DNA from: a virus
Lineage: Duplodnaviria > Heunggongvirae > Uroviricota > Caudoviricetes
Direction: 5' to 3' (one strand)
IMG/VR virus record: IMGVR_UViG_2923350032_000001
Coordinates: 750 to 64,749 of that record
Length of the DNA: 64,000 nt
The notes under the pieces are model-generated. The model was not told the origin of the DNA, ran no database searches, and saw nothing but the letters and a program-made list of their open reading frames with translations. Positions within the stretch are counted from its first letter, which is position 1. Every line of letters begins with the position of its first letter. Shown here piece by piece: positions 1,554 to 24,775 of the stretch. Both the position numbers and the translations under genes were made by a program.

Positions 1554-1674
1554 AGCGCATCCTTTGTGCCGTTTGGCAAGGGCCGGAAGGGGGTTAATGG
1601 TGACTTCCAGCGTGTAAAAAATGGTCTATATACTGACCGGATGTTAAGGTGATCCGGTCGGTAGCAATGGTCAA

Positions 1675-4364: not shown

Positions 4365-4540
4365 CCACTTATTTCAGGTTTATGTAATTGGCGGTGATTC
4401 TACAGCAACTTGGATGCTTTAGCAGTTCGGACATTAGGCTACGAATGACCTGCCTAGAGGTTTGTTAAGCCGCAAAGTGCTGGTGCTTTATGTCTGTGAA
4501 GTTTATAATTGTGTACACATAACGAGTACACGAGGTGTTT

Positions 4541-4762
4541 ATGCAATCCATTAACTTCCGTACCGCGCGCGGCAACCTTTCTGAAGTGCTCAACAATGTT
4601 GAGGCCGGGGAAGAGGTTGAAATCACCCGCAGAGGCCGTGAGCCAGCAGTAATTGTCAGCAAGGCTACTTTCGAAGCCTACAAAAAAGCGGCGCTGGATG
4701 CTGAATTTGCATCCCTGTTTGACACCCTGGACTCCACCAACAAGGAACTGGTTAACCGATAA
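4541..4762 (+). CDS. phd: Phd antitoxin (prevent host death)
   Basis: 73-aa product [32 protein letters not shown]... recognised as P1 Phd; stop overlaps doc start. Confidence 0.95.
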
Positions 4763-5142
4763 TGAGGCATATATCACCGGAAGAACTTATTGCGCTTCAT
4801 GATGCGAATATAAACCGCTACGGCGGCCTGCCGGGAATGTCTGATCCGGGTAGGGCAGAGGCCATTATCGGGAGAGTTCAGGCCAGAGTTGCCTACGAAG
4901 AGATCACCGACCTTTTCGAAGTCTCCGCCACCTACCTGGTGGCTACAGCGAGAGGGCATATATTCAATGATGCCAATAAGCGTACCGCGCTAAACAGTGC
5001 GCTGTTATTTCTACGCCGTAACGGGGTGCAGGTATTTGATTCACCTGAACTGGCAGACCTTACCGTAGGGGCTGCGACCGGAGAGATATCTGTATCTTCT
5101 GTCGCCGCCACGTTACGTAGATTGTATGGTTCTGCGGAGTAG
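4762..5142 (+). CDS. doc: Doc toxin (death on curing, Fic-fold kinase)
   Basis: 126-aa product [25 protein letters not shown]... recognised as P1 Doc. Confidence 0.95.
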
Positions 5143-5146
5143 ATTA

Positions 5147-5326
5147 ATGGCACGCAAATACAACAAATTGTCCCGTGAAGCGTTAAAGATGCTTCTTGAT
5201 GGCGTGAGTCGCCGCAAGGTAAAGCAATACCTGGTTGGTAAGCAAATTGGTGCTAGGACCGCTATTGCTGTGTTATGCCGTCAGGAAATGGTTGTGCTTA
5301 AACAGAGAATGCCGGGCAGCAGATAA
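5147..5326 (+). CDS. hypothetical small basic protein downstream of doc
   Basis: ORF 5126-5326, internal ATG at 5147; position matches the P1 post-doc region. Confidence 0.25.
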   Translation: MARKYNKLSREALKMLLDGVSRRKVKQYLVGKQIGARTAIAVLCRQEMVVLKQRMPGSR

Positions 5327-5353
5327 AGCCCAATCAGTGATGAAAGGTGTGAT

Positions 5354-6397
5354 GTGAAAGCCATTATTACTCCCTTTGTACAAAAAGAGCTTGGCGTCGC
5401 CACATTCAAAGTGGATCAGGAAGTCAGAAAGCTGGTGGAGGCTGGCCGTAAATTTATTATGGAGCCGGTGCCGCGTGAGTTAATCGAGCACATGGACGAC
5501 GGCCTCGTTGTTTCCGAGCAAACTATGGCAACAAATGAGGCGTTGCAGCCGTTTTTTAACAGCGATGAACTGTTTCGCCGTATTGGTGGAATTGACTCGC
5601 TGGTGGCGTGGTTGCGCAGGAAAGAGGGGCAATGCCAGGCCGCAGATCGTAGTTGGTGTGACAACCATATTGTCCACGCTAAACGAGACAATAGCGCGGT
5701 GTTGCTGTGCTGGCATCACGATAACCATTACCGGATGCGTGGTTTTAATGAGCTGAAAGAAACGCTGCATAATAATCGCGTTAACTGGATACTGGATGTC
5801 GCCCGTCAGGAAATGGGCCTTTCAAATAGCCATGATTTAAGTATTCAGGAGCTGTGCTGGTGGGCTTTCATGCGCAACATGATGCACCTGATGCCGGAAG
5901 AAGTCTGCCGCATATCAATAAATAAGATGAAGGCTGCTCCGCAGGATAGCGGACCTTTGAAAGAGGCGGATATTCGCCCGTATGACGATCGTGCTACAGC
6001 ATATGTTCAGATGATGGAAGAACGCGCCGCGCCGATGCGTGCAAAAGTATGCCCTGTGGATGTTGACTCCGACCCTGGCACGGCGCATTTCAAAATACCA
6101 AAACTGCAATCGCTAAAATTACCCGAGTACATGGACTTTGTTGCTTCCCGTCCGTGCTGTGGATGTGGAGCTGCGGGAGCTGGCGCTCGCATTACGCCTT
6201 ATATCGTTCGTCATAGTCGATTATGCGCGCATGACATTTACGCAATTCCTCTGTGCCAGTCATGCCAGCGTGATATTGAGCGTGACCGCGATAATTGGGA
6301 GAAGACGCACGGCAGGCTGGCGATGCATCAACGATTGTTCTTTGATTACGCGCTTGGAGTCGGCGCTATCACAAGTCACTCGTCGAGCGTTAGATAA
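5354..6397 (+). CDS. hypothetical protein, post-doc region, Cys-rich C-terminus
   Basis: 347-aa ORF with GTG start; position equivalent to pdcB in P1 gene order. Confidence 0.5.
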
Positions 6398-6398
6398 A

Positions 6399-6415
6399 AT
6401 TGCTCTAATGTATTG
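6399..6415 (+). promoter_or_regulatory. C1 operator (ATTGCTCTAATgtaTTg) upstream of lpa
   Basis: match to the 17-bp asymmetric P1 C1 operator consensus ATTGCTCTAATAAATTT. Confidence 0.6.
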
Positions 6416-6485
6416 CTATTTCTTTAATCGAGGGTATTATATTCGTCGTTGATTAGTTGACATGGGCTAATCAGTAGGTGACAGG

Positions 6486-6938
6486 ATGTTACTTAACTGG
6501 CAGGGACGCCACTTCATGGAAATAAATCACTCACGAATTACATCGTATGAGATTGCGGATTACATGATTCGCACTAAATCTCTTCTATCAGCGAAAGAAC
6601 TCGCAGCAATCCTTGAAAAGGAATACCCGCATCTGGATGTCGATAAGCGCGATGTTTATCTGCGCTTAAAGGCTATCGCTGTGTCTAAGTATTCGTCTGT
6701 TTTGATTGATGACAGTACACGCCCACGTAGATTTCAGATCCACTCTCTGAATCCTGAATTCTTTCGCCGTAGCCGCGCTCCGCGCCGGTTTGATGAAAAA
6801 CTCCAGAACGAACTCTATATGACGCAGGACGAAAAGGAACGCCGGGAGCACCAGCCTTGGGTAATGGCGCGTCAACTTTTCAATAAGGTGGCCCGTCAGC
6901 ACCGTCATTACGGTAATGCCACATCCGCACGTATCTGA
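6486..6938 (+). CDS. lpa: late promoter activator Lpa-like protein (true start may be the internal Met at about 6516)
   Basis: 150-aa ORF directly upstream of pacA and downstream of a C1 operator, as in P1. Confidence 0.55.
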   Translation: MLLNWQGRHFMEINHSRITSYEIADYMIRTKSLLSAKELAAILEKEYPHLDVDKRDVYLRLKAIAVSKYSSVLIDDSTRPRRFQIHSLNPEFFRRSRAPRRFDEKLQNELYMTQDEKERREHQPWVMARQLFNKVARQHRHYGNATSARI

Positions 6939-7023
6939 TTGATTGCTTGCCCGTTCCGGGCCTTTTGACATGTGACTTTCGTTACCCTCGCGTCAAAAAG
7001 AGTTTTTACGAAAGGAAGCATAA

Positions 7024-8217
7024 GTGACCTGGGACGATCACAAGAAGAATTTTGCTCGCCTGGCGCGAGATGGTGGTTACACCATCGCACAGTATGCCGC
7101 CGAGTTTAATCTTAACCCTAATACCGCACGTCGTTATCTCCGTGCCTTCAAAGAAGACTCCAGGACTGCGGACAGCCGCAAGCCAAATAAGCCAGTCAGG
7201 AAGCCACTAAAAAGCATGATCATTGATCACTCTAATGATCAACATGCAGGTGATCATATTGCGGCTGAAATAGCGGAAAAACAGAGAGTTAATGCCGTTA
7301 TCAGTGCCGCAGTCGAGAATGCGAAGCGCCAAAATAAGCGCATAAATGATCGTTCAGATGATCATGACGTGATCACCCGCGCCCACCGGACCTTACGTGA
7401 TCGCCTGGAACGCGACACCCTGGATGATGATGGTGAACGCTTTGAATTCGAAGCTGGCGATTACCTGATAGATAACGTTGAAGCGCGGAAGGCCGCGCGC
7501 GCTATGTTGCGTCGGTCCGGGGCCGATGTTCTGGAAACCACTCTTCTTGAAAAGTCTCTTTCTCATCTCCTTATGCTGGAGAACGCCAGGGATACGTGTA
7601 TTCGCCTGGTGCAGGAAATGCGCGATCAGCAAAAAGACGATGATGAAGGTACTCCGCCTGAATACCGTATCGCGAGCATGCTAAACAGCTGTTCCGCGCA
7701 GATAAGCAGCCTGATCAACACCATTTACAGCATCCGGAATAACTATCGAAAAGAAAGCCGGGAGGCGGAAAAGCACGCTTTGTCTATGGGGCAAGCTGGC
7801 ATTGTTAAGCTGGCATACGAACGAAAGCGTGAAAATAACTGGTCAGTGCTGGAAGCAGCTGAATTCATCGAGGCGCATGGCGGGAAAGTGCCGCCCCTGA
7901 TGCTGGAGCAAATCAAAGCCGATCTGCGTGCTCCTAAGACCAATACCGATGATGAGGAAAGGCAAACAGCCGTCGGTGGCCCTTCTCTTGAAGATCTGGA
8001 CAAAGTTGCGCGAGAACGGGCCGCCAACCGCCGCGCCGATGCCGCATTGTGGATTGAGCAGCGTAGGGAAGAAATCGCCGATATCGTTGATACAGGCGGT
8101 TATGGAGATGTTGATACTGAAGGTGTATCAAACGACCCATGGCTGGAACAAGACCTGGACGAAGACGAGGAGGAAGACGAAGAAGTTACCCGCAAGCTAT
8201 ACGGGGATGATGATTAA
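7024..8217 (+). CDS. pacA: terminase small subunit / pac-recognition protein PacA
   Basis: 397-aa ORF with GTG start; contains the pac site; acidic C-terminus; recognised as P1 PacA. Confidence 0.92.
7208..7375. other. P1-type pac packaging site: four TGATCA hexamers (7208-7247) and three TGATCR hexamers (7347-7375) flanking the cleavage region
   Basis: hexamers with embedded GATC Dam sites read directly in sequence inside pacA. Confidence 0.9.
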
Positions 8218-9701
8218 TGGCCAGAAGTTGCGTAACGGATCCACGTTGGCGCGAGCTGGTGGCGCTATATCGTTATGACTGGATTGCTGCCGCTGATGTT
8301 TTGTTCGGCAAAACACCTACCTGGCAGCAGGATCTGATTATTGAGTCTGTGCAGGAACAGGGTAGCAAGACATCTGTTTCGTCTGGTCACGGTACCGGGA
8401 AATCAGACATGACTTCTATCATGATCATGTTGTTCATAATCATGTATCCCGGTGCCCGCGCCATTATCGTTGCGAACAAAATTCAGCAGGTAATGACCGG
8501 TATATTCAAGTACATCAAGATAAACTGGGCTACTGCCACCAGCCGTTTCCCATGGCTTGCTGATTATTTTGTTCTGACAGAAACCGCTTTCTATGAGGTT
8601 ACAGGTAAAGGTGTATGGACTGTAGTACCGAAGGGCTTTCGTCTGGGAAGTGAAGAAGCTCTCGCCGGTGAACACGCAGATCATCTTCTGTATATTATCG
8701 ATGAAGCCTCCGGTGTCAGTGATAGAGCTTTCGGTATCATCACCGGTGCTCTTACCGGACAGGATAACCGCATCTTATTACTGTCACAGCCTACACGCCC
8801 AAGCGGCTATTTCTACGATACACACCATAAACTGGCCAAGCGTCCTGGTAACCCTGATGGCGTTTATACGGCGATCACGCTTAACAGTGAGGAATCACCG
8901 TTGGTAACGCCAGCATTTATCAAAATGAAGCTGGCGGAGTACGGCGGGCGTGATAACCCTATGTACATGATTAAGGTACGCGGCCTATTCCCTAAATCAC
9001 AGGATGGCTTCCTTCTTGGACGTGATGAGGTTGAACGTGCAACGCGGCGGAAAGTCAAGATTGCCAAAGGATGGGGCTGGCTTGCATGTGTGGACGTTGC
9101 TGGTGGTACGGGACGGGATAAGTCCGTTATCAATATCATGATGGTGTCCGGCCAGCGAAATAAACGCCGTGTAATCAACTATCGAATGCTGGAATACACA
9201 GACGTTACAGAAACGCAGCTTGCCGCCAAAATTTTCGCAGAATGTAATCCTGAGCGATTCCCAAATATCACCATAGCGATAGACGGCGATGGGCTGGGTA
9301 AAGCAACGGCGGATCTGATGTACGAGTATTATGGTATTACCGTACAGCGTATACGCTGGGGTAAAAAGATGCATAGCCGTGAAGATAAGAGCCTGTACTT
9401 TGATAAACGTGCTTATGCCAACGTTCAAGCCGCAGAGGCCGTAAAATCTGGTCGTATGAGACTGGATAAGGGTAATGAAACTATTGAGGAAGCGTCGAAA
9501 ATCCCTGTAGGGATTAACTCCGCAGGTCAATGGAAGGTGATGAGTAAGGAGGATATGAAGAAAAAACTCAACCTGCACTCACCAGACCATTGGGATACAT
9601 ATTGTTTCGCTATGCTGGCGGATTATGTTCCCCAGGATGAAGTGCTTAGCGTCGAAGACGAAGCGCAGGTTGATGAAGCTCTGGCATGGCTTAATGAATG
9701 A
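8217..9701 (+). CDS. pacB: terminase large subunit PacB
   Basis: 494-aa ORF overlapping pacA stop; recognised as P1 PacB. Confidence 0.92.
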
Positions 9702-9703
9702 AT

Positions 9704-9720
9704 ATTTGCTCTAATAAATT
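9704..9720 (+). promoter_or_regulatory. C1 operator (ATTTGCTCTAATAAATT) heading the c4-icd-ant-like module
   Basis: consensus match immediately after pacB stop. Confidence 0.65.
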
Positions 9721-9789
9721 GTGTTTTTTAACTGCCGATGTTACATTGAACCTGACCTCTTGCGCCTTGAGGCATTTTCGGTTTATGCT

Positions 9790-9885
9790 TATCAGGCACC
9801 TCATTAAAACGGGTGCCGGGATTGAGACCCCGGATAATGCAAAAGGCGACACAGACGCCAAAAGCGTCTTTTTTTTGTGTCATGC
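9790..9885 (+). ncRNA. candidate c4-like antisense immunity RNA ending at hairpin GACGCcaaaaGCGTC + T-run
   Basis: structured untranslated leader between operator and icd-like ORF; terminator-like hairpin at 9862-9885; segments complementary to sequence near the icd RBS. Confidence 0.3.
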
Positions 9886-10061
9886 CATCGCACAGCCATA
9901 CGTAGCGTTTAGCTCAGAGATCAATGGTAGTGCTGGCTGGGCTGCCGAAAGGCAGGCCGGTTCCCTTTTGCGCCGGTAGTCTCAACCCAGTCAGTGCTAC
10001 CGCCATTGAGATTGAGACCTCACGCGGTAGCTCCTTAAATTAGCAAAAGGAGGCTGCCATT

Positions 10062-10283
10062 GTGGCTACTATCCCTACCCCTGCTCATCCTGAATTTATC
10101 TGGCGCTTTTACTCCTGCCAAAAACGTCACTATCACTTCGTTATTGCACCGACAGAAGATGAGGCACGTTCTCAGCTTCCTGACGCCCCATGTATTTTCT
10201 CTGCCCGTTTTTCCACTGATTCACGCAATTCTCTCAGTTACTGGTGCCTCCCTGTTAACGCTTCTGCTCAGGAGGGACTATGA
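10062..10283 (+). CDS. icd: Icd-like protein (interference with cell division)
   Basis: 73-aa ORF (EFIWRFYSCQKRHYHFVIAPTEDEARSQLPD...) overlapping start of downstream ant-like gene; paralog of ORF 23512-23733. Confidence 0.7.
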   Translation: MATIPTPAHPEFIWRFYSCQKRHYHFVIAPTEDEARSQLPDAPCIFSARFSTDSRNSLSYWCLPVNASAQEGL

Positions 10284-11392
10284 GAACATCGTTAGTTACC
10301 CGTGAAGAGATGATCGAGGCAATTGAACAGCACACTGCCTGTATCAGTACCAGGGATATACCTGGCGTTATTGCCAACTACTTCATGATCACCAAACAAC
10401 TTTACCGGAGAAAGGACAAGAACGCGGTTCACCGTATCCTGCTGTCTGATATCCGCGAATACCTGCTCGAACAGGGGCATCTGAATTACGCAACCGTCGC
10501 AGCCGAAGCACGCAAGGAGGCACACAGAATGAAAGCAACTAACGTTAAATCAGAAAAAATTTATGCACCTTCAGTTCAGGAATCGGAACTGGTGGTTGTT
10601 CAGAATCAGCCGGATGAAATTCCCGTTCTGGAATGGCAGGGAGTACGTGTCGTGACAACCGAAACTCTTGCTAGAGGGTATGGGGTCGATGAAGCCAATA
10701 TTCGCAACAATTTGTCTCGCAACCTTGACCGCTTTGAAGAAGGTAAGCATTACTTTCTTCTAACAGGTTTAAAATTAAGAGAATTTAAGAACAGAGTAAC
10801 CGGAAGTTACTCTGTTGGTAAGAACGCCAGAAGCCTTACACTCTGGACAGAGCGCGGCGCTGCACGCATGTCTAAGATCGTGGACACAAATGAAGCATGG
10901 GCATTCTTTGAAAAACTGGAAGACAGCTACTTCCGACAAAAAGAACAGCAACCGATCGCAATCCCCCAGACGCTTCCTGAAGCCCTACGCCTGGCTGCCG
11001 AACTGGCTGAACAAAAGCAGCTTCTGGAACAGAAAGCCCACCAGCTAAATCAGCAGCTGGTGGCCGCCGCTCCTAAGGTCGATTTTGCCGACCGGGTATC
11101 AGTAGCTAAAGGGATCCTGATTGGGAATTTTGCAAAGGTTGTTGGACTTAAGCAAAACGCGCTGTTTGCCTGGTTACGGGAGAACGGCATTCTGATAGCG
11201 TCCGGCGGGCGTAAAAATGTGCCGTTCCAGCAGTACATAAACGCCGGATATTTCACAGTGAAAGAAGTGGTGCTGGATGATGAAGATGGCTACCAGATAC
11301 GGCTGACGCCCCAATTAACGGGGAAAGGACAACAGTGGTTGACGCGTAAACTGCTCGATGCTGGCTTGTTAAAACCGGTGGCGGCTGAATAA
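10280..11392 (+). CDS. antirepressor-like protein with Bro-N-like middle region and KilA-C/ANT-type C-terminal domain
   Basis: 370-aa ORF; C-terminal 130 aa closely parallel the C-terminus of KilA (25415-26215). Confidence 0.7.
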   Translation: MRTSLVTREEMIEAIEQHTACISTRDIPGVIANYFMITKQLYRRKDKNAVHRILLSDIREYLLEQGHLNYATVAAEARKEAHRMKATNVKSEKIYAPSVQESELVVVQNQPDEIPVLEWQGVRVVTTETLARGYGVDEANIRNNLSRNLDRFEEGKHYFLLTGLKLREFKNRVTGSYSVGKNARSLTLWTERGAARMSKIVDTNEAWAFFEKLEDSYFRQKEQQPIAIPQTLPEALRLAAELAEQKQLLEQKAHQLNQQLVAAAPKVDFADRVSVAKGILIGNFAKVVGLKQNALFAWLRENGILIASGGRKNVPFQQYINAGYFTVKEVVLDDEDGYQIRLTPQLTGKGQQWLTRKLLDAGLLKPVAAE

Positions 11393-11424
11393 TGGAAGAA
11401 TGCCCGGTTGATGCCGGGCATAAT

Positions 11425-12276
11425 TTATTGCGCGCTTTCGGGGTTGTCGTTTACTGGCTGCCCCTTCTTAGTTTTACGACTGCGCGTAACTGATGCGGCT
11501 GATTTGACCTTTTTCTCTTCGCGAGTGATGGCAATTTGTTTTTTTACATTTTCAATATCTGCCAGGCGATATATTTTTGCCTGCGGCCAGCGGTCGCAGA
11601 TGATCGGTTCTATGGAGTCATAAAGGCTAAATTTTGCTTTTTCGAATTCACCGTTGATGATAATTCCATCACGGAGAGTTTCATCGCAGATAAACACGCC
11701 ACACAGTGGCACATGGTAACTAACTGATTTACCATCATTGTAGTTAGGGCTACTGGAAATGTAGTGGACGCGCAGCATTGTTTCGCTAAAGCCGTGTACG
11801 CGCATACGGAATTTTTCATCCTCCGGGTACTGCTTCATTAGCTCTTTTGTTGCTTCCAGGTTCTCTATGTATTTCGCACTGTGCTCATTGATCCCCGCGC
11901 TTTTTTGGATGCGAATGTCCTTATCAATCAGATGAATAATGCGGCCAGCGGTCATGTTGACGCTGTTCACAGCCTCTGTCTGATAAGTTGTAACCTTACG
12001 CACACCGCGAAGGATGTTAGGCACTGGATATAAAATAGTCTTTGGGATATTGAGGTCTGGGTACTGTTCCAGTTCCCGCGCCATTAAAGTCCATTTATCA
12101 ATTTCAGCCTGAATGCTGTCAGTTTCTTTGAACGGTAGAACGACAACCGGGCGTACAGGACGACCGTCGCTGGCTGTATCAACGTGTTGGGCGCGTGCAA
12201 CAGCTTTTTTTAGAAAGAGATCCCTGAAGCTGACGAACTCCTGGTACAGTTGTTCGCCGTAGACATAATTTATCAT
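11425..12276 (-). CDS. c1: C1 repressor of lysis
   Basis: 283-aa product MINYVYGEQLYQEFVSFRDLFLKKAVARAQ... recognised as P1 C1. Confidence 0.95.
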   Translation of the reverse strand: MINYVYGEQLYQEFVSFRDLFLKKAVARAQHVDTASDGRPVRPVVVLPFKETDSIQAEIDKWTLMARELEQYPDLNIPKTILYPVPNILRGVRKVTTYQTEAVNSVNMTAGRIIHLIDKDIRIQKSAGINEHSAKYIENLEATKELMKQYPEDEKFRMRVHGFSETMLRVHYISSSPNYNDGKSVSYHVPLCGVFICDETLRDGIIINGEFEKAKFSLYDSIEPIICDRWPQAKIYRLADIENVKKQIAITREEKKVKSAASVTRSRKTKKGQPVNDNPESAQ

Positions 12277-12386
12277 TGATCCTCCTCCAGAATTGACATG
12301 GCCAATAACGCCCGGCTGAGAAAACCGGTCATTACTGACCTATATTATAGAGGGATCAAACAAAAATAATAGATTTATTAGTGCAT

Positions 12387-12596
12387 TTATTGTGAGTCTA
12401 ACTGGTTAGTTGCCATGAGATATTCGATTGTGTCAGTGAGGTCATCCAGGTCGTCTTGGGTGATGCGGTACTCCTGATTGGATATCTTTGAGTAGTGTTC
12501 AGCAATGGCGCGGGCAGCGTCGGTTTCGGCAGGGTCTACAGATAAAGCGTTAGAGCAATGTCTAACGTCGTCGATGGTTGGTTGAATGAAAGCCAT
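12387..12596 (-). CDS. coi: Coi (C1 inactivator)
   Basis: 69-aa ORF immediately upstream of c1 on the same strand. Confidence 0.8.
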   Translation of the reverse strand: MAFIQPTIDDVRHCSNALSVDPAETDAARAIAEHYSKISNQEYRITQDDLDDLTDTIEYLMATNQLDSQ

Positions 12597-12835
12597 AATT
12601 ATGCCTCACTGTATTGACAACACAGAGCCTGAAGCTCTGACCTACTGTTTCACCCATGATCCATGCTGGGGTAATCTAACAACATTGCGCTGTGTGTAAG
12701 ATGAGCAATGCATAGCTGTAATGCCGTTGTATAAGGTTTCCCTGTTTGCTCATTTCCTTCTGAGCCGCTCTACAACGCTGAAGACACATTAAATAGTGAA
12801 TCCAAAGTCGTATTACGTAACGGCGGCAAAACTAT

Positions 12836-12851
12836 AATTTATTAGAGCAAT
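12836..12851 (-). promoter_or_regulatory. C1 operator (inverted orientation)
   Basis: AATTTATTAGAGCAAT is the reverse complement of the consensus. Confidence 0.65.
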
Positions 12852-12917
12852 TGTCAAACAACTATGAAAAACAATCCAGTTTTTGGTTGGTGGAGTGGGA
12901 TTTTTCTCTCAAAATTT

Positions 12918-12934
12918 ATTGCTCTAATAATTCT
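12918..12934 (+). promoter_or_regulatory. C1 operator (ATTGCTCTAATAATTCT)
   Basis: consensus match; forms a divergent pair with 12836-12851 upstream of coi/c1. Confidence 0.65.
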
Positions 12935-12977
12935 TGATTTTTATGCGCAGCTGGACGTAAACTCCTCTTCAGACCTA

Positions 12978-13011
12978 ATAACTTCGTATAGCATACATTA
13001 TACGAAGTTAT
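12978..13011. other. loxP site (ATAACTTCGTATA-GCATACAT-TATACGAAGTTAT)
   Basis: exact 34-bp loxP sequence read in the window. Confidence 0.97.
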
Positions 13012-13429
13012 CTTAAGGGTTATTGAACATGATCAATTTACCTGTAAATCCATACAGTTCAATACCTTATCAGGTCAAATAGTGATCACTTGATCATTTG
13101 ATCAAGGTTGCGCTACGTAAAATCTGCGAAATGTTGGCAGTGTTAGTGCTCCAGATTTTGCGTAGCGCACTTAGCACCACCAATCAATCAGAGGTGAAAA
13201 ATGGGATATTCAGCTGCTAAAGTGTCCACTCATATTGAGCTTGAGAAAAACCGTGGTTACTGGCGGGCAAAAGGGTTTGATCGTGATAGTTGTCAACTGT
13301 CATTATCGCGCGGTGAAGAGAAAATAGAGCGCACGCGCGGTCGCTGGCGTTTCTATGACGAGAACCATAAACAGGTAAAGGCAGAGCCGATCCTGTACAC
13401 TTTACTTAAAACCATTATCTGAGTGTTAA

Positions 13430-14461
13430 ATGTCCAATTTACTGACCGTACACCAAAATTTGCCTGCATTACCGGTCGATGCAACGAGTGATGAGGTTCG
13501 CAAGAACCTGATGGACATGTTCAGGGATCGCCAGGCGTTTTCTGAGCATACCTGGAAAATGCTTCTGTCCGTTTGCCGGTCGTGGGCGGCATGGTGCAAG
13601 TTGAATAACCGGAAATGGTTTCCCGCAGAACCTGAAGATGTTCGCGATTATCTTCTATATCTTCAGGCGCGCGGTCTGGCAGTAAAAACTATCCAGCAAC
13701 ATTTGGGCCAGCTAAACATGCTTCATCGTCGGTCCGGGCTGCCACGACCAAGTGACAGTAATGCTGTTTCACTGGTCATGCGACGGATCCGAAAAGAAAA
13801 CGTTGATGCCGGTGAACGTGCAAAACAGGCTCTAGCGTTCGAACGCACTGATTTCGACCAGGTTCGTTCACTCATGGAAAATAGCGATCGCTGCCAGGAT
13901 ATACGTAATCTGGCATTTCTGGGGATTGCTTATAACACCCTGTTACGTATAGCCGAAATTACCAGGATCAGGGTTAAAGATATCTCACGTACTGACGGTG
14001 GGAGAATGTTAATTCATATTGGCAGAACGAAAACGCTGGTTAGCACCGCAGGTGTAGAGAAGGCACTTAGCCTGGGGGTAACTAAACTGGTCGAGCGATG
14101 GATTTCCGTCTCTGGTGTAGCTGATGATCCGAATAACTACCTGTTTTGCCGGGTCAGAAAAAATGGTGTTGCCGCGCCATCTGCCACCAGCCAGCTATCA
14201 ACTCGCGCCCTGGAAGGGATTTTTGAAGCAACTCATCGATTGATTTACGGCGCTAAGGATGACTCTGGTCAGAGATACCTGGCCTGGTCTGGACACAGTG
14301 CCCGTGTCGGAGCCGCGCGAGATATGGCCCGCGCCGGAGTTTCAATACCGGAGATCATGCAAGCTGGTGGCTGGACCAACGTAAATATTGTCATGAACTA
14401 TATCCGTAACCTGGATAGTGAAACAGGGGCAATGGTGCGCCTGCTGGAAGATGGCGATTAG
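13430..14461 (+). CDS. cre: Cre tyrosine recombinase
   Basis: 343-aa product MSNLLTVHQNLPALPVDATSDEVRKNLMDMFRDRQAFSEHTWKMLLSVCRSWAAWCKLNN... Confidence 0.97.
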   Translation: MSNLLTVHQNLPALPVDATSDEVRKNLMDMFRDRQAFSEHTWKMLLSVCRSWAAWCKLNNRKWFPAEPEDVRDYLLYLQARGLAVKTIQQHLGQLNMLHRRSGLPRPSDSNAVSLVMRRIRKENVDAGERAKQALAFERTDFDQVRSLMENSDRCQDIRNLAFLGIAYNTLLRIAEITRIRVKDISRTDGGRMLIHIGRTKTLVSTAGVEKALSLGVTKLVERWISVSGVADDPNNYLFCRVRKNGVAAPSATSQLSTRALEGIFEATHRLIYGAKDDSGQRYLAWSGHSARVGAARDMARAGVSIPEIMQAGGWTNVNIVMNYIRNLDSETGAMVRLLEDGD

Positions 14462-14477
14462 CCATTAACGCGTAAAT

Positions 14478-14494
14478 GATTGCTCTAATTCTTT
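14478..14494 (+). promoter_or_regulatory. C1 operator-like site upstream of cra
   Basis: ATTGCTCTAATtcTTTg. Confidence 0.5.
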
Positions 14495-14511
14495 GATATT
14501 TATGGTGACAT

Positions 14512-14823
14512 ATGAGAAAGGATTTCAACATCGACGGAAAATATGTAGTGCTGTCTGTAAGCACTAATATTCAGTCGCCAGCCGTCATTGTCACTGTAAA
14601 GCTGAGCGATAGAATGCCTGATATTGATTCAATATCCATTGCGTTCCCTGTCAAAAGTATGCGTGGTGCTGAACATTTCGTGATGAATGCCACCGAGGAA
14701 GAAGCACGGCGCGGTTTTGCTAAAGTGATGTCTGAGTTTGGCGAATTTTTGGGGCACGTTGACAAAGCCCTTTCAATCAGTTCAGCAAGATCCAAAGCGT
14801 TAACAGCTTCCATGATGAAATAA
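14512..14823 (+). CDS. cra: Cra (cre-associated function)
   Basis: 103-aa ORF immediately downstream of cre, as in P1. Confidence 0.75.
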   Translation: MRKDFNIDGKYVVLSVSTNIQSPAVIVTVKLSDRMPDIDSISIAFPVKSMRGAEHFVMNATEEEARRGFAKVMSEFGEFLGHVDKALSISSARSKALTASMMK

Positions 14824-14848
14824 AAAAAAGCCTGGCAAGGAGCCAGGC
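14822..14848 (-). terminator. hairpin GCCTGGC-aagga-GCCAGGC with U-tract on the minus strand
   Basis: 7-bp perfect stem flanked by an A8 run on the plus strand; canonical for minus-strand transcripts, weak for plus. Confidence 0.5.
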
Positions 14849-14955
14849 TGCACAAAAGAGCGGGTTTGTATTCCGCATCCAATCAATCAAGAAGGAGTAT
14901 AGCACACAGGTACTGAAGTGAAAAAATGTGATTCGCGATAAACAAAATATCTACC

Positions 14956-14972
14956 ATTGCTCTAATTGATTG
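14956..14972 (+). promoter_or_regulatory. C1 operator upstream of ref followed by a TATAAT -10
   Basis: ATTGCTCTAATtgATTg then TATAAT at about 14974. Confidence 0.6.
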
Positions 14973-15039
14973 TTATAATTGAGCCGCAGTTTTTGTCAAC
15001 TACGAAGACGTTGCCATTACTTCACTCCTTGACATCATT

Positions 15040-15065
15040 GGCGGCCATTAGGCCGCCTTTTTTTT
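15040..15065 (+). terminator. terminator/attenuator-like hairpin GGCGGCC-atta-GGCCGCC + T8 just upstream of ref ATG
   Basis: perfect 7-bp GC stem followed by TTTTTTTT, 7 nt before the ref start codon. Confidence 0.45.
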
Positions 15066-15071
15066 GACCAT

Positions 15072-15647
15072 ATGAAAACAATCGAACAAAAAATTGAACA
15101 GTGCCGCAAGTGGCAGAAGGCAGCCAGAGAACGAGCGATCGCTCGGCAACGGGAGAAGTTGGCTGATCCGGTCTGGCGAGAATCTCAATATCAGAAAATG
15201 CGGGATACTATCGACCGCCGTATCGCTAAACAGAAAGAGCGCCCACCAGCCAGCAAAACGCGGAAAAGTGCGGTAAAAATAAAATCTCGTGGCTTGAAGG
15301 GACGAACACCGACGGCAGAGGAACGGCACATAGCCAATGCTCTTGGCGCTCTCCCCTGCATTGCGTGCTATATGCATGGAGTAATATCTGAAGAGGTGTC
15401 TCTGCACCATATTTCCGGTCGTACCGCGCCTGGTTGTCACAAAAAGCAATTGCCACTTTGTAGATGGCACCACCAGCATGCAGCACCGGCTGAAGTAAGA
15501 GCAAAATACCCCTGGCTGGTCCCTGTTCATGCCGATGGTGTGGTTGGAGGCAAGAAAGAATTCACCCTGCTGAACAAGTCAGAGATGGAGTTACTGGCTG
15601 ACGCCTATGAGGGGTCGTCTCAGAAAACGGAAAATAAAGCACGCTAA
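15072..15647 (+). CDS. ref: Ref (recombination enhancement function, HNH-type); last 11 codons supplied by the transposon inverted repeat
   Basis: 191-aa ORF matching P1 Ref through ...ELLADAYE; the Tn21-type IR starts at 15611 inside the ORF. Confidence 0.85.
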
Positions 15648-18610
15648 GCCGGTTGCAGAGGCCGTAGCGGCCTGAACTTCCCCGCGCCGATCTTGGCGCT
15701 GCTGCGCCATAGGTAATCACCGGTCAGGTTGATGTGCTCCCAGCCGAGTGGCGACAGGTACTGCAATAGCGAGTCATCGACGGCATGACCATTGCCGCGC
15801 AACGCATGCGCCGCACGCTCCAGGTAGACCGTGTTCCACAGCACGATGGCCGCCGTCACCAGGTTGAGGCCGCTGGCCCGGTAGCGCTGCTGCTCGAAAC
15901 TGCGGTCACGGATTTCACCAAGGCGGTTGAAGAACACGGCACGGGCCAGCGCATTGCGCGCCTCGCCCTTGTTCAGCCCGGCATGCACGCGGCGGCGTAG
16001 CTCGACGCTTTGCAGCCAGTCGAGGATGAACAGCGTGCGCTCGATGCGGCCCAACTCGCGCAGCGCGACGGCCAAGCCGTTCTGGCGCGGGTAGCTGCCG
16101 AGTTTCCTGAGCATCAGCGAGGCCGTCACCGTGCCCTGCTTGATCGAGGTGGCCAGCCGCAGGATTTCGTCCCAATGGGCGCGGACGTGCTTGATGTTGA
16201 GCGTGCCGCCGATCATCGGCTTGAGCGCGTCATAGGCGGCATCGCCCTTCGGGATGTAGAGCTTGGTGTCGCCCAGGTCGCGGATGCGCGGCGCGAAGCG
16301 GAAGCCCAAGAGGTGCATCAGGGCGAAGACGTGATCGGTGAAGCCCGCCGTGTCGGTGTAGTGCTCCTCGATCCGCAGGTCGGATTCGTGGTACAGCAGG
16401 CCGTCGAGCACGTAGGTTGAGTCGCGCAGGCCGACATTGACCACCTTGGTGTGGAATGGCGCGTATTGGTCGGAGATGTGGGTGTAGAAAGTCCGTCCTG
16501 GGCTGCTGCCATATTTTGGGTTGATGTGCCCCGTGCTCTTTGCCTTGCTAGCGGTTCGGAAATTCTGTCCGTCCGATGATGATGTGGTGCCATCGCCCCA
16601 GTGCCCGGCAAAGGGATGCCGAAACTGAGCGTTGACCAGTTCAGCCAACGCTGTCGAGTACGTTTCGTCGCGGGTATGCCAGGCTTGCAGCCAAGCGAGC
16701 TTCGCGTAGGTCGTGCCGGGGCAGGACTCGGCCATCTTGGTCAGGCCCAGGTTGATCGCGTCGGCCAGGATCGTGGTCAACAACAGGTTCTTGTCCTTGG
16801 CCAGATCGCCCGATTTCAAGTGCGTGAAGTGCCGGGTGAAGCCCGTCCACTCATCGACTTCGAGCAGCAGTTCGGTGATCTTGACGTGCGGCAGGACCAT
16901 GGCTGTCTGGTCTATCAGCGCCTGCGCGGTGTCGGGCACCGCCGCATCCAGCGGCGTGATCTTCAAGCCCGACTCGGTGATGATGGCATCCGGCAGGTCG
17001 TTGGCTGCCGCCATGCGGTTGACGGTGGCAAGTTGTGCTTCCAGCAGCGTCAGCCGCTCATGCAGATATTGTTCGCAGTCGGTGGCCACGGCCAGCGGCA
17101 ATTCGCTGGACTGCTTGAGGCTGGTGAACTTCTCGGGCGGTACCAGGTAGTCCTCGAAGTCCTTGAACTGGCGTGAACCCTGCACCCAGATGTCGCCCGA
17201 GCGCAGGGAGTTCTTCAACTCGGACAGCGCGCACAGTTCGTAGTAGCGCCGGTCGATGCCGGCGTCGGTCATCACCAGTTTCTGCCAGCGCGGCTTGATG
17301 AAGCCGGTCGGTGCATCGGCTGGCAGCTTGCGGGCGTTGTCGGTGTTCATGCCGCGCAGCACCTCAATGGCATCAAGCACGTTTTTGGCGGCGGGCGCGG
17401 CCCGCAGCTTGAGCACGGCAAGGAATTCCGGTGCATAGCGGCGCAGGGTGGCGTAGCTCTCGCCGATGCGATGCAGGAAATCGAAGTCATCGGGTTGCGC
17501 GAGCTTCTGCGCCTCGGTGACGCTCTCGGCAAAGGAATCCCAGGACATGACGGCCTCGATGGCGGCAAACGCATCGCGGCCTGATTGCTTGGCGTCGATC
17601 AGCGCCTGACCGATGCGCCCGTACAGACGTACCTTGGCGTTGATGGCCTTGCCTGACGCCTGGAACTGCTGCTGATGCTTATTCTTGGCAGCGTTAAACA
17701 GCTTACCCAGGATGCGGTCGTGCAGGTCGATGATTTCGTCGGTGACGGTGGCCATGCCCTCGGTGGCCAGCGCCACGAGAGTGGCGTAGCGCCGTTGCGG
17801 CTCGAATTTGGCCAGGTCGGCGGGTGTCATCTGGCCGCCCTCGCGGGCAATCTTGAGCAGGCGGTTCTGGTGAACCAGCCGCTCGATGCCGGTAGGCAGA
17901 TCGAGTGCCTGCCATGCCTTGAGGCGTTCGATGTGTTCCAGCATATGCCGCGAATTTGGCTTGGCCGGAGACTGGCGCAACCAAGCCAACCAGGTCGTCT
18001 TGCCGTTGTCCCGGCGCTTGAGCAGATCGTCGAGGCGGCGGCGATGCGCGTCCGCCAGTGGTTCGGCCAAGGCGTCGTAGATGCGCCGGTTAGCACGGGT
18101 GATCGCCTCTGCACTCGCCCGCTCGACGGCGTTGAGGGCGGGCAGAATGACCGACTGCCGCCGCAGGTGCCCGATCAAGGCGCTGGCCAGCACGATGCCT
18201 TTGTCGGTTTGCATCGCCAGCTCGGTCAGCATCTGGACGGCCTGCCGGTAATGGCTCATGGTGAAGGGCCGGAAACCGAACACGGTTTGCAGCTCGCTCA
18301 GGTGCTCGCGCCGGGTCTGCTCCCGCTGGCCGTACTCGTTCCAGCTTTCGACGCCGACCTTGAGCTGGTCGGCGACCAGCTTCAACAAGGGCGGGAACGG
18401 TAGTTCATCGACGCCCAGGATGACGCCGGGAAAGCGCAGGTAACAGAGCTGCACCGCGAAGCCCAGCCGATTGGCTGGCCCGCGCCGCTGTCGGATGATC
18501 GAGAGGTCGGTATCGTTGAATGTGTAATGTCGGATCAGGTCGTCCTTGGAGTCCGGCAACGCCAGCAGGCTTTCCCGCTCGGCGGCGGACAGGATGGAAC
18601 GACGTGGCAT
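15644..18610 (-). CDS. tnpA: Tn3-family transposase TnpA (Tn21 type)
   Basis: 988-aa [42 protein letters not shown]... Confidence 0.95.
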
Positions 18611-18612
18611 AT

Positions 18613-19173
18613 TTACTGATCCGTTCTCAAGTATTGATACAGGGTTTCGCGACTGATTCCGAATTCACGAGCAAGCTTGGTCTTTTGCTCGCCAGCCTCG
18701 ATACGTTGGCGCAGTTCGGCAATACGCTCAGACGACAGGGATTTCTTCCTGCCACGGTAAGCCCCGCGTTGCTTGGCGAGCGCAATACCCTCGCGCTGAC
18801 GCTCGCGGATCAGGGCGCGCTCGAACTCGGCGAACGCGCCCATCACCGAGAGCATCAGGTTCGCCATCGGAGAGTCTTCGCCAGTAAAACTGAGGTGTTC
18901 CTTGACGAATTCGATATGCACGCCGCGTTGTGTCAGCGTTTGCACGATCCGGCGCAAATCATCGAGATTGCGCGCCAGGCGATCCATGCTATGCACCACC
19001 ACGGTGTCGCCGGTGCGGGCGAAGCTTATCAGCGCTTCCAGTTGCGGACGCTTGACATCCTTGCCGGATGCCTTGTCGCTAAAAGCGCGATCAACCTTGA
19101 CGCCTTCCAGTTGCCGTTCCGGGTTCTGGTCGAAGGTGCTGACCCTGATATACCCAATGCGCTGTCCAGTCAT
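18613..19173 (-). CDS. tnpR: serine resolvase TnpR
   Basis: 186-aa [24 protein letters not shown]... with catalytic Ser and C-terminal HTH. Confidence 0.95.
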
Positions 19174-19300
19174 GGAATTCCCTGCAAAATGTCAGGGAAG
19201 ACTCTATGACCTTCAACGAGATATGTCAATAAATTCAAAATTCAATCCTATCCTGACGCAATTTACACATGGCATCTGACATCAGGTTAGGGTATGCCTC
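19174..19300. other. probable res (resolution) site upstream of tnpR
   Basis: position relative to tnpR; subsites not mapped. Confidence 0.4.
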
Positions 19301-19405
19301 AACCTGACGGCGGCGAATCACAAGCGTCCGGTTTGACGCTGGTTTCGGTCGCAGTGCTGGCCCGCGCCTGGAAGCGCTGATAGCACTCCAGCCCGCAGAA
19401 ATGCT

Positions 19406-19683
19406 GGCACTGTTGCAAATAGTCGGTGGTGATAAACTTATCATCCCCTTTTGCTGATGGAGCTGCACATGAACCCATTCAAAGGCCGGCATTTTCAGCG
19501 TGACATCATTCTGTGGGCCGTACGCTGGTACTGCAAATACGGCATCAGTTACCGTGAGCTGCAGGAGATGCTGGCTGAACGCGGAGTGAATGTCGATCAC
19601 TCCACGATTTACCGCTGGGTTCAGCGTTATGCGCCTGAAATGGAAAAACGGCTGCGCTGGTACTGGCGTAACCCTTCCGATCT
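19406..19683 (+). mobile_element. partial IS26 (left IR and first 70 or so codons of tnp26), abutting a complete inverted IS26
   Basis: IR GGCACTGTTGCAAA at 19406; Tnp26 N-terminus [18 protein letters not shown]...; ends at the IR of the next copy. Confidence 0.85.
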
Positions 19684-20503
19684 GGCACTGTTGCAAAGTT
19701 AGCGATGAGGCAGCCTTTTGTCTTATTCAAAGGCCTTACATTTCAAAAACTCTGCTTACCAGGCGCATTTCGCCCAGGGGATCACCATAATAAAATGCTG
19801 AGGCCTGGCCTTTGCGTAGTGCACGCATCACCTCAATACCTTTGATGGTGGCGTAAGCCGTCTTCATGGATTTAAATCCCAGCGTGGCGTTGATTATCCG
19901 TTTCAGTTTGCCATGATCGCATTCAATCACGTTGTTCCGGTACTTAATCTGTCGGTGTTCAACGTCAGACGGGCACCGGCCTTCGCGTTTGAGCAGAGCA
20001 AGCGCGCGACCATAGGCGGGCGCTTTATCCGTGTTGATGAATCGTGGGATCTGCCACTTCTTCACGTTGTTGAGGATTTTACCCAGAAACCGGTATGCAG
20101 CTTTGCTGTTACGACGGGAGGAGAGATAAAAATCGACAGTGCGGCCCCGGCTGTCGACGGCCCGGTACAGATACGCCCAGCGGCCATTGACCTTCACGTA
20201 GGTTTCATCCATGTGCCACGGGCAAAGATCGGAAGGGTTACGCCAGTACCAGCGCAGCCGTTTTTCCATTTCAGGCGCATAACGCTGAACCCAGCGGTAA
20301 ATCGTGGAGTGATCGACATTCACTCCGCGTTCAGCCAGCATCTCCTGCAGCTCACGGTAACTGATGCCGTATTTGCAGTACCAGCGTACGGCCCACAGAA
20401 TGATGTCACGCTGAAAATGCCGGCCTTTGAATGGGTTCATGTGCAGCTCCATCAGCAAAAGGGGATGATAAGTTTATCACCACCGACTATTTGCAACAGT
20501 GCC
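19684..20503 (-). mobile_element. IS26 (complete, 820 bp)
   Basis: 14-bp terminal IRs GGCACTGTTGCAAA at 19684 and its complement ending at 20503. Confidence 0.95.
19736..20440 (-). CDS. tnpA: IS26 transposase Tnp26
   Basis: 234-aa DDE transposase [54 protein letters not shown]... Confidence 0.95.
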   Translation of the reverse strand: MNPFKGRHFQRDIILWAVRWYCKYGISYRELQEMLAERGVNVDHSTIYRWVQRYAPEMEKRLRWYWRNPSDLCPWHMDETYVKVNGRWAYLYRAVDSRGRTVDFYLSSRRNSKAAYRFLGKILNNVKKWQIPRFINTDKAPAYGRALALLKREGRCPSDVEHRQIKYRNNVIECDHGKLKRIINATLGFKSMKTAYATIKGIEVMRALRKGQASAFYYGDPLGEMRLVSRVFEM

Positions 20504-20517
20504 CCATATCAGCCCCC

Positions 20518-21108
<591 letters not shown>

Positions 21109-21214: not shown

Positions 21215-22447
21215 TTATTTGAATATATCGGTTATAGTTGGGTAATTATACATCTTAAGCTTATCTCTAAATTTCATAGAAAATATAGGGTCTACCTTAC
21301 ATCTCTGTGAGAGCTTTGCAAGCCTTAGCTCCCTCTCTTTCATAATATCTTTGTATTCTCTATCAATACTCTCCTGAATTTGCTGATTCTCAACAGGAGA
21401 CGGTTTTGTAATTTTATCCCATTGATAAGTTGGATTCTCAGTGTAATTTAAATCATCATTTTGAAGTAATTTCTCAAGATGAGACATAGCATTTTCATAT
21501 AGCATTCTATCTTGGGGCAACATACTTGCAACACGCACTTCGCTTTCAATTTCCGATACTATCATTTCAAGTTGACGTTTTTCCATCGCTATAGCTACAC
21601 GGAATGGAAACAGGGCTTCTTGCTTAATCATTTGACAATTCACATTATTGTTTATGTCACTAAGTAATTTTACAAATGAGAACTTCGCTAAAGGCTGCTG
21701 ATTTATGACACTCTGTCTAACTGGCATTGTGTAGCTCGGTGTTTTTTCAAGTGTTTTCTTCACTTGCTCTATAGCAACATTAGGAGTTTTGAGAACAGTC
21801 TTTGCTGGAATACGTAGCACCATAAACCCCTCCTTTATTGAATATTCATCACGAATACGATCTCGCTCTATTTGTTCAGGGGATGAATGCCATGCTGCAC
21901 CATCAATTTCTATAATTTGGCGTCCATTTACGACAAAATCAAAACGATAACGCTTATAGGGCACTTGCATTTCAAGCACTAAGTCAGGAGAAACTAACAT
22001 TCCAGATTTAGGTTTAAGATTAAACTCTGCAACCATTTTACGAAGAAATGCCTCCTCAGCCGGAGATTCGCAACCTTTGCAAAATATATCAAGCCAGTTT
22101 TCTGCGTCAGCGTCAACAGTTTGCCACCATGCTAACAGTCCGCGTCGGTGTCCATATAATCGTTCATCTGACGGTTTTGTTAATGGCTTTGTTAACGGTT
22201 TAATTAAGGGTTCATTTAACGGCTTATTTAACGGATTTAATAACGATTCATTTAATGGTTTGATTGACGGTCTATTTGACGACTCAATCGGTGGTTTAGA
22301 TGATGATTTGTTTTTTTTATCAAAACCTACGATAGTTATATATGCTACATATAGCATCATGCCTGCAACAGGCCATACACATGGATAAATCACGTAACAC
22401 AACAGTAATAGAACAATAGTCCCAAAAAATGTTAACTTCTTCCGCAT
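21215..22447 (-). CDS. membrane-anchored protein with DUF559/Vsr-like (PD-(D/E)xK-type) endonuclease-like domain
   Basis: 410-aa ORF in an AT-rich segment: two N-terminal hydrophobic helices, proline-rich KPLxx repeats, then RFDFVVNGRQIIEIDGAAWHSSPEQIERDRIRDEYSIKEGFMVLRI, then an unassigned C-terminal domain. Confidence 0.6.
   Translation of the reverse strand: MRKKLTFFGTIVLLLLCYVIYPCVWPVAGMMLYVAYITIVGFDKKNKSSSKPPIESSNRPSIKPLNESLLNPLNKPLNEPLIKPLTKPLTKPSDERLYGHRRGLLAWWQTVDADAENWLDIFCKGCESPAEEAFLRKMVAEFNLKPKSGMLVSPDLVLEMQVPYKRYRFDFVVNGRQIIEIDGAAWHSSPEQIERDRIRDEYSIKEGFMVLRIPAKTVLKTPNVAIEQVKKTLEKTPSYTMPVRQSVINQQPLAKFSFVKLLSDINNNVNCQMIKQEALFPFRVAIAMEKRQLEMIVSEIESEVRVASMLPQDRMLYENAMSHLEKLLQNDDLNYTENPTYQWDKITKPSPVENQQIQESIDREYKDIMKERELRLAKLSQRCKVDPIFSMKFRDKLKMYNYPTITDIFK
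22168..22300. repeat. tandem 15-nt repeats encoding the proline-rich KPLxx linker of ORF 21215-22447
   Basis: ttaa(c/t)ggNtt(g/a)tt-type units read in sequence. Confidence 0.6.
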
Positions 22448-23733: not shown

Positions 23734-24775
23734 AAACACCTCTCGTCACCCGTAATGAAATAGCCGAAGCGATCGCCTTGCATACTGCCTGTATGCCGAC
23801 ACGGGAGACCCCCGGCGCAATTGCCAACTATTTCATGATAACCAGACGTTTTTATACCCGAACAGATAAGGCTGTGATCAACAGGCTACTGATAGCCGAG
23901 ATCAGGGATTATTTGATTGAACAAGGACGTCTACGTTACGCAACAGTGGCAGCAGAAATGAGAAAGGAGGCGCGCAGAATGACCGGTAATAATTTGAATG
24001 TTGAAAAACCAGCACCTGTTGCTTCAGCTACGCCATCACCAGCTGTGAATGTTATCTCCAACACTGGAGACACAATCGACAGCCAGACACTGTTAAAGAT
24101 GGTCAATGAAGCGCGTAAGTTATGTGTGGAACCAGAGGTTCGGAACAACAAATTCATCGAAAAAATACTCGACGAATTAGAAGGTGAGGACGGTTACACA
24201 AAAAGTGCAACCGTGCCGCCAGGTGGCGGTACGCCTATGGTTGTCATAACCATGACCTACAAACAAGCCCTGCGAGTCGCGCGCGCGAGTCAAAAGCGGT
24301 CCGCCGTTCGCTGATCGACAAACTGGAAGAATTGCAGCAGGCATACTCCCCTGCCCCATCGATCCCCCAAACATTACCAGAAGCTCTACGCATGGCTGCC
24401 GAGTTGGCAGAGCAGAAAATGCAGTTGGAACAGCAGCTGGTGGCCGCAGCCCCTAAAGTCGATTTTGCCGACCGGGTATCAGTGGCCAATGGAATCCTGA
24501 TCGGGAACTTTGCAAAGGTCGTTGGACTTAAGCAAAACGCCCTTTTCTCATGGTTGCGCCAGAACGGCATTCTCATGGCTTTTGGAGCGCGCAAAAACGT
24601 ACCGCGCCAACAGTACATCAATGCGGGGTATTTCACGGTGAAAGAAGTGGTGCTGGATGATGAAAATGGCTACCAGATACGGCTGACGCCCCAATTAACG
24701 GGTAAAGGCCAGCAGTGGTTAACTCGCAAGCTACTTGATGCTGGTTTGTTAAAACCAGTGGCGTCCTTGTCTTAA
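23730..24775 (+). pseudogene. antirepressor-like gene split into two frames (194-aa N-part, 147-aa KilA-C-type C-part)
   Basis: ORF 23730-24314 ends ...SQKRSAVR*; an overlapping frame continues ...KAVRRSLIDKLEELQQAYSPAPSIPQTLPEALRMAAELAEQK, parallel to the intact paralog 10280-11392. Confidence 0.6.

Follow-up and report, generated by a model that had tools for sequence, protein, structure and literature searches.

A Tn21 remnant in the ref gene of a P1-like phage-plasmid, bounded by an inverted pair of IS26 sequences

Organization of the ref locus

We analyzed a 64,000-nucleotide stretch of viral DNA (Caudoviricetes; positions 750 to 64,749 of IMG/VR record IMGVR_UViG_2923350032_000001), called the window below, in which a remnant of the well-known mercury- and antibiotic-resistance transposon Tn21 lies in the ref gene of a P1-like backbone and ends at a pair of IS26 sequences. 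The P1 gene order is kept to the left of this structure, with cre at 13430-14461, c8 at 14512-14823 and ref at 15072-15647. Colinearity with the IncY plasmids p204A1-114K and pL9-1 and, over cre-c8-ref, with P1 itself places the window among the P1-like phage-plasmids (Punavirus / IncY). A first-pass annotation of the same DNA had placed the start of a 38-bp Tn21-type inverted repeat at position 15611, inside ref, and we find exactly this: the repeat, GGGGTCGTCTCAGAAAACGGAAAATAAAGCACGCTAAG, occurs as a single exact copy at 15611-15648 (plus strand), where chance would yield none, up to three mismatches included. It matches R100 19693-19730 at 38 of 38 positions and is the only Tn21-type repeat in the window; we refer to it as IRtnp, the terminal inverted repeat at the tnp end of Tn21.

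Behind the repeat follow, all on the minus strand, an intact open reading frame (ORF) for the 988-residue Tn21 transposase (tnpA, 15644-18610), an intact gene for the 186-residue resolvase (tnpR, 18613-19173), which is supported by matches to the serine-recombinase family, a res region of 125 bp between tnpM and tnpR (19174-19298), and the last 107 bp of tnpM, also named urf2M (19299-19405), a stretch in which relatives annotate a DUF3330 coding sequence. The resolution site presumably lies within 19174-19298, as established for Tn21. The co-orientation of tnpA and tnpR and the location of res upstream of tnpR are those expected of Tn21. The annotation had listed only tnpA, tnpR and res as surviving; all three are there, and the 3′ end of tnpM has to be added to them.

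The remnant aligns without a gap to the Tn21 of R100 (NC_002134.1; window 15611-19405 against R100 19730-15936), with 3793 of 3795 nucleotides matching and the two mismatches at window 18110 and 18702. It corresponds to Tn21 nucleotides 15878-19672, the tnp end of the transposon. The TnpA protein is 100% identical to that of R100, TnpR differs only by V158I, and the res region shows no mismatch. The earlier label of a Tn21-family element was thus right as to type and too loose as to identity. Tn1696 and other Tn21 relatives are ruled out by the 99.95% identity to R100 Tn21, together with the integron of pL9-1, which lies in tnpM as it does in Tn21. By its sequence, the element is Tn21 proper.

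Relative to the Tn21 of R100/NR1 (Tn3 family, Tn21 subgroup), with which it shares IRtnp, TnpA, res and the tnpM 3′ end, the window keeps 3.8 kb of 19.7 kb and has lost the repeat at the mer end (IRmer), the mer operon, the In2-type integron and most of tnpM. Neither the mer operon nor a class 1 integron in urf2/tnpM is present in the window, and both are found in pL9-1. Because a single inverted repeat is left and IRmer is missing from the window, what remains is a remnant rather than a complete Tn21. A stump with one inverted repeat is unable to transpose as a unit. The full-length TnpA and TnpR and the res site could nevertheless serve other Tn21-type elements in trans, bring about the resolution of multimers, or allow occasional one-ended transposition.

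The insertion site and the hybrid Ref protein

The ref reading frame (15072-15647, plus strand) runs through the transposon end and encodes a hybrid protein of 191 residues, in which residues 1-180 are of the P1 type and residues 181-191, as well as the stop codon, are supplied by the Tn21 inverted repeat. Residues 1-181 align to P1 Ref (PDB 3PLW) with E=5e-118, and the alignment includes the nuclease core. With this similarity along the protein, the hybrid can be assigned on sequence grounds to Ref, the RecA-dependent HNH nuclease of P1. Native P1 Ref has 186 residues and ends in ...ADAYEMANIMH, the P1 DNA reading ...GACGCCTATGAGATGGCAAACATCATGCACTAA. In the window the repeat begins at the third base of the Glu-180 codon, so that the native tail (E)MANIMH is swapped for 11 transposon-encoded residues and just the last six native residues are replaced. 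The proposal that the final 11 residues of Ref come from the transposon is thereby borne out; a native P1 C terminus matching the window tail had been named as the observation that would speak against it, and the two tails differ.

Directly left of the repeat lies TATGA (15606-15610), which spans ref codons 178-180 and is the left copy of the 5-bp target-site duplication of Tn21. A second TATGA, like IRmer, is absent from the window and is found only in the relatives pL9-1 and p204A1-114K. In these two plasmids, the transposon is bounded by ..CCTATGA and GGGGTCGTC.. at one end and by ..GGTGCCCCC and TATGAGATGG.. at the other, and TATGA stands on both sides. The duplication in relatives that keep both transposon ends establishes that the insertion in the last codons of ref, as the first-pass annotation had described it, is a true transposition at TATGA. 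As a first step, a Tn21 derivative transposed into an IncY P1-like phage-plasmid at TATGA in ref, duplicating these five bases. The insertion left Ref with 180 native residues and the 11-residue IRtnp tail, and parted ref from the operator and promoter of mat.

Relatives that share the junction

We observed the same ref::IRtnp junction in three public IncY P1-like plasmids, pL9-1 (NZ_CP142045.1), pEC85-4-128k (NZ_CP158185.1) and p204A1-114K (CP100027.1); it is 100% identical in pL9-1 and pEC85-4-128k. In pL9-1, the Tn21 derivative measures 29,255 bp and reads, in order, IRmer, mer, urf2, three IS26 copies, aac(3)-IId, mph(A), IS6100, chrA and sul1, followed by the cassettes aadA16-dfrA27-arr-3, intI1, tnpM, res, tnpR, tnpA and IRtnp. 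All three plasmids differ from the window in retaining both transposon ends, the mer operon, resistance genes and the full phage gene set. The position of IS26 inside Tn21 also differs in each of them, and the IS26 boundary pair of the window is unique. In all, the window lacks 69 kb.

The closest of these relatives is pL9-1, with 99.99-100% identity over the longest backbone blocks and at least 99.7% over the rest. In p204A1-114K, near-identity to the window extends over ~4.7 kb on and around the junction, while the backbone, ~98.6% identical overall, diverges farther away. As the near-identity is confined to this segment, the comparison points to one ancestral ref::Tn21 insertion that is now found on mosaic backbones.

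The same 4.7 kb of near-identity on a diverged backbone indicates that junction segments move between P1-like backbones by recombination, and it raises an alternative in which the Tn21 stump arrived together with ref from another P1-like plasmid, the insertion having taken place on a different backbone. For the window we regard this as quite unlikely. The 19.4 kb that precede the IS26 boundary, and with them everything to the left of the junction, are 99.99% identical to pL9-1, a plasmid in which both transposon ends and the TATGA duplication are kept. Moreover, such an arrival would alter only the place of the single ancestral transposition and not the nature of the structure.

A literature search found no paper on Tn21 in ref of P1-like plasmids; the cases that have been described concern Tn1721 and Tn2/Tn3. 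The ref::Tn21 junction is already present in public records, all of its components and processes are well known, and nothing about it is mechanistically new.

The IS26 boundary

The first-pass annotation had the transposon cut by IS26 at 19406. An IS26 terminal repeat does start at this position, but the IS26 sequence consists of two pieces rather than one, and its first base adjoins Tn21 nucleotide 15878. The first piece (19406-19683, plus strand) is a truncated IS26, recognized by its terminal-repeat matches, that comprises the left inverted repeat (IRL) and the first 278 bp of the element with the 5′ part of tnp26 reading rightward. The second piece (19684-20503, minus strand) is a complete IS26 of 820 bp in inverted orientation, 100% identical to the annotated IS26 at pL9-1 6773-7592. 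It has the features of the IS6 family, namely 14-bp terminal repeats (GGCACTGTTGCAAA, at 19684-19697 and 20490-20503) and a single tnp26 gene, an ORF for 240 residues at 19736-20458 on the minus strand. The fragment is identical at 278 of 278 positions to the reverse complement of the complete copy, so that the window contains a 278-bp perfect inverted repeat (19406-19683 versus 20226-20503); past position 278, an intact IS26 goes on TTGCCCGTGG. In place of this continuation, the fragment directly adjoins the outermost base of the right inverted repeat (IRR) of the complete copy, at 19684. An 83-residue ORF at 19451-19702, in which the truncated tnp26 continues into the inverted repeat of the adjacent IS26, is almost certainly a by-product of the rearrangement and not a gene.

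On the far side of the complete IS26, the backbone resumes at 20504, which equals pL9-1 89296, with the first four bases of tub, the tail tube gene (89293-89904 in pL9-1), then a 10-base spacer and an intact pmgC at 20518-21084; this right-hand deletion endpoint (20504-21084) reads on the minus strand, and the names PmgC and Tub are taken from phage records. No 8-bp target duplication surrounds the complete IS26: the left flank reads TCCGATCT and the right flank CCATATCA, and the two do not match in either direct or reverse-complement orientation. The missing duplication agrees with an intramolecular event and not with simple insertion. Plain insertion of an IS26 into another IS26 is ruled out on two counts: the 8-bp duplication is missing, and the remainder of the interrupted copy does not follow.

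A truncated and a complete IS26 in inverted orientation require at least two IS26 events. In pL9-1, all three copies share the orientation of the complete IS26 of the window, and the 278-bp fragment is inverted relative to them. These orientations suggest a second step in which a resident IS26 would have entered tnpM by inversion-mode intramolecular replicative transposition, bringing its IRL against Tn21 nucleotide 15878. In a third step, an IS26 variant identical to pL9-1 6773-7592 would have made two adjacent deletions. From its IRR end, one deletion would have run into the inverted IS26 and left the first 278 bp of that copy; from its IRL end, the other would have run to the fourth base of tub. 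IS26-mediated inversions have been described in the P1-like backbone of the plasmid pTZ20_1P (PMC6906374). As in the intramolecular replicative transposition of IS26 in resistance plasmids and in pTZ20_1P, the window shows IS26 ends on new DNA without 8-bp repeats, inverted copies and the loss of adjacent DNA. It differs in that one target was another IS26, of which the 278-bp fragment is left, and in that phage structural and lysis genes were deleted.

Alternatively, ordinary IS26 insertions, one in tnpM and one in tub, could have come first, with homologous recombination between direct IS26 copies then causing most of the loss. IS26 is numerous in this lineage, and its boundaries differ from relative to relative. 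Direct repeats commonly give rise to deletions by recombination, and such recombination could account for the join of the complete IS26 to tub, had an IS26 first inserted there. We nevertheless hold this route to be unlikely. Recombination between full-length copies cannot place a 278-bp fragment directly against the terminal base of a complete IS26 in inverse orientation; this join, at least, needs attack by the transposase on an IS26 target. The 8-bp duplications that ordinary insertions would have left are also missing.

The arrangement of Tn21, IS26 fragment, IS26 and pmgC was found in no record of PLSDB or of the RefSeq complete E. coli genomes. When the two novel junctions were used as 100-bp queries against PLSDB, the best 12 rows for each were joined two-piece matches, none of them contiguous, and an apparent match of pYZ_2_2_2 to the arrangement proved to be a chance joining of separate matches. 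The lack of a second record of the full arrangement, the three IS26 copies in the resistance island of pL9-1 and the 278-bp perfect inverted repeat, a structure that chimeric long reads sometimes create, together bring up an assembly artefact, in which repeats were collapsed or misjoined at the IS26 copies of a pL9-1-like plasmid of ~134 kb. This we consider highly improbable. The novel joins fall exactly on IS26 terminal bases (19406, 19684 and 20503), which is a signature of transposase chemistry and not of a misjoin within a repeat. In pL9-1 no IS26 adjoins tub, so that a collapse of repeats could not make the IS26-tub join, and the remaining sequence of the window can be closed into a circle without difficulty.

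Extent of the loss and state of the replicon

Positions 1-19405 of the window correspond to pL9-1 43653-24247 with 99.99% identity. From 20504 onward, the window follows pL9-1 from 89296 down to 44404 with 99.7-100% identity, broken only at differently placed copies of an IS91-family element. Measured against pL9-1, the loss consists of two parts. The transposon part amounts to 25,460 bp of the Tn21 derivative and includes every resistance gene: the integron with arr-3, dfrA27, aadA16 and sul1, and with it chrA, IS6100, mph(A), aac(3)-IId and mer. The backbone part amounts to 43,479 bp, from mat to codon 2 of tub, and takes in mat, lxc, ulx, darB, the portal and head protease genes, lysozyme, ssb, the darA operon, the lysis genes, cin and the tail fiber genes, the baseplate genes, sit, pmgB and tub. 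The suggestion that the P1 genes expected after ref had been removed by an IS26-mediated deletion holds, with the genes from mat onward missing, and the loss is larger than was recognized, at ~43.5 kb of backbone and 25.5 kb of transposon.

In pL9-1 and p204A1-114K, the window ends fall in a single hsdR gene, 750 bp from each other. From this spacing, the source is probably a circle of ~64.75 kb, of which the window covers all but ~750 bp. The mat-to-tub interval, with the virion and lysis genes, has no counterpart in the window and is probably absent from the replicon. Retained are repA/parAB, phd-doc, cre-lox, c1 and the pac genes (pacAB), in P1 gene order. From its gene content, the ~64.75-kb plasmid can probably no longer make virions. 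We found no resistance gene in the window, as the annotation had stated; none is predicted in the p204A1-114K segments that align to the window, and the large ORFs in the segments unmatched in p204A1-114K encode HsdS, a DUF559-type protein, ParA and ParB, TnpB, an IS91 transposase and proteins of unknown function. The annotation had also suggested looking for the rest of the transposon elsewhere in the replicon, a search that is probably futile with nearly the whole circle in the window.

Taken together, the locus is very probably a historical scar and not a working system: Tn21 entered ref at TATGA, and IS26 then removed most of the transposon, its resistance genes and a large part of the phage backbone. 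Several points weigh against this history or limit its detail. The circularity of the replicon and its size of 64.75 kb are read from the window ends. Judged by its IS91-family copies, which sit at other places than that of the window, pL9-1 is a sibling rather than the parent of the window replicon. The order and number of the IS26 events have been reconstructed; no intermediate occurs in the collections searched, and the proposed inversion has lost its 8-bp signatures. One of the two deletions could also be the product of homologous recombination between directly oriented IS26 copies. Read as such a scar, the window is an example of the decay of a phage-plasmid into a plasmid, and of the loss rather than the gain of resistance: a former carrier of a multiresistance Tn21 has become an ordinary low-copy plasmid, in which a transposase, a resolvase and a res site are left as orphans.

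Other Tn3-family insertions at the end of ref

Three Tn3-family transposons have inserted within 2 bp of one another at the end of ref: Tn21 in the window (15606-15612), Tn3 in phage P7 and Tn1721 in phage SJ46. The P7 copy (Tn2/Tn902; ends at 2610-2625 and 7560-7575 of the P7 sequence used here, L004) occupies the same spot with its tnpA end next to ref, as in the window, and likewise gives Ref a foreign C-terminal tail. The SJ46 copy, Tn1721 with blaCTX-M-27 (ends at 10100-10120 and 18740-18760 of the SJ46 sequence, L002), also lies at this spot and gives Ref a foreign tail, but in the reversed orientation. Both differ from the window in being other transposons, complete, in full-length phage genomes. 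The SJ46 insertion and its duplication have been described (PMC11117986), as have insertions near the Tn2 site of P7 (PMC6906374). The target duplications are TATGA for Tn21 (in pL9-1 and p204A1-114K), TGAAA for the Tn3 of P7 and TATGAA for the Tn1721 of SJ46. Three transposons with three different duplications represent independent events, and a coincidence of three insertions within 2 bp on a genome of ~94 kb is implausible.

The shared target is an AT-rich core between GCC and GGC (GCC-TATGARAT-GGC; GCCTATGAGATGGC), ~10-30 bp upstream of the C1 operator of mat. Whether the end of ref is a true target hotspot for Tn3-family transposases of three subgroups is, in our judgment, evenly balanced, and from the sequences the shared site may reflect either a target preference or the survival of harmless insertions. 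Were it a hotspot, resistance transposons would have at the end of ref a preferred point of entry into P1-like phage-plasmids. The use of the same bases by three transposons offers a modest clue to the places at which P1-like elements take up resistance genes, and this shared target is the one mildly novel feature of the locus.

Four further independent insertions of the Tn1721/Tn1722 type were found at other sites in ref and mat, in the E. coli plasmids pLR-46_1 (L017, position 2278), pTB-nb1 (L018, 2362), pP136-6 (L019, 1782) and pUTME-12-1 (L020, 1749). Their flanks read ...TTCAT, ...AAGTA, ...TTTAT and ...AAATA, and all four have the tnpA end towards the start of ref; more copies lie in the opposite orientation. 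With at least four further insertions of this type within ~0.6 kb across ref and mat, the region looks like a regional sink for Tn1721/Tn1722.

We found no statement in the literature of the convergence of three transposons at the end of ref. Among the RefSeq complete E. coli genomes, a few have the SJ46-type junction and none has that of P7. Searches of IMG/VR, the GTDB genomes and the JGI metagenomes with the patterns "ref end + GGGG" and "CCCC + mat side" recovered only SJ46, and the metagenomes yielded nothing; a GTDB match in a metagenome-assembled genome of the Deinococcaceae (L012) was an unrelated chance match.

Additional features of the window

The IS91-family element of the window (57250-58938), with a transposase of 399 residues, lies at a site that differs from those of the two pL9-1 copies and of the pEC85-4-128k copy, and it appears to be active in the lineage. 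A TnpB protein of the IS200/IS605 type (391 residues; RNA-guided endonuclease family) is encoded at 46916-48091, in a segment that p204A1-114K does not have. Between pmgC and the icd/ant region, an ORF (21215-22447) specifies a protein of 410 residues with a membrane-like N-terminal segment and a proline- and leucine-rich repeat of KPLN/KPLT units; in relatives its annotation is that of a protein with a DUF559 endonuclease domain, it has no NCBIfam match, and an IS91 copy interrupts the pL9-1 version. A second icd/antirepressor-like module lies between pacB and c1 (~10000-11500). It is ~86% identical to the immI copy at 24431-24763 and is the stretch of the window most divergent from p204A1-114K.

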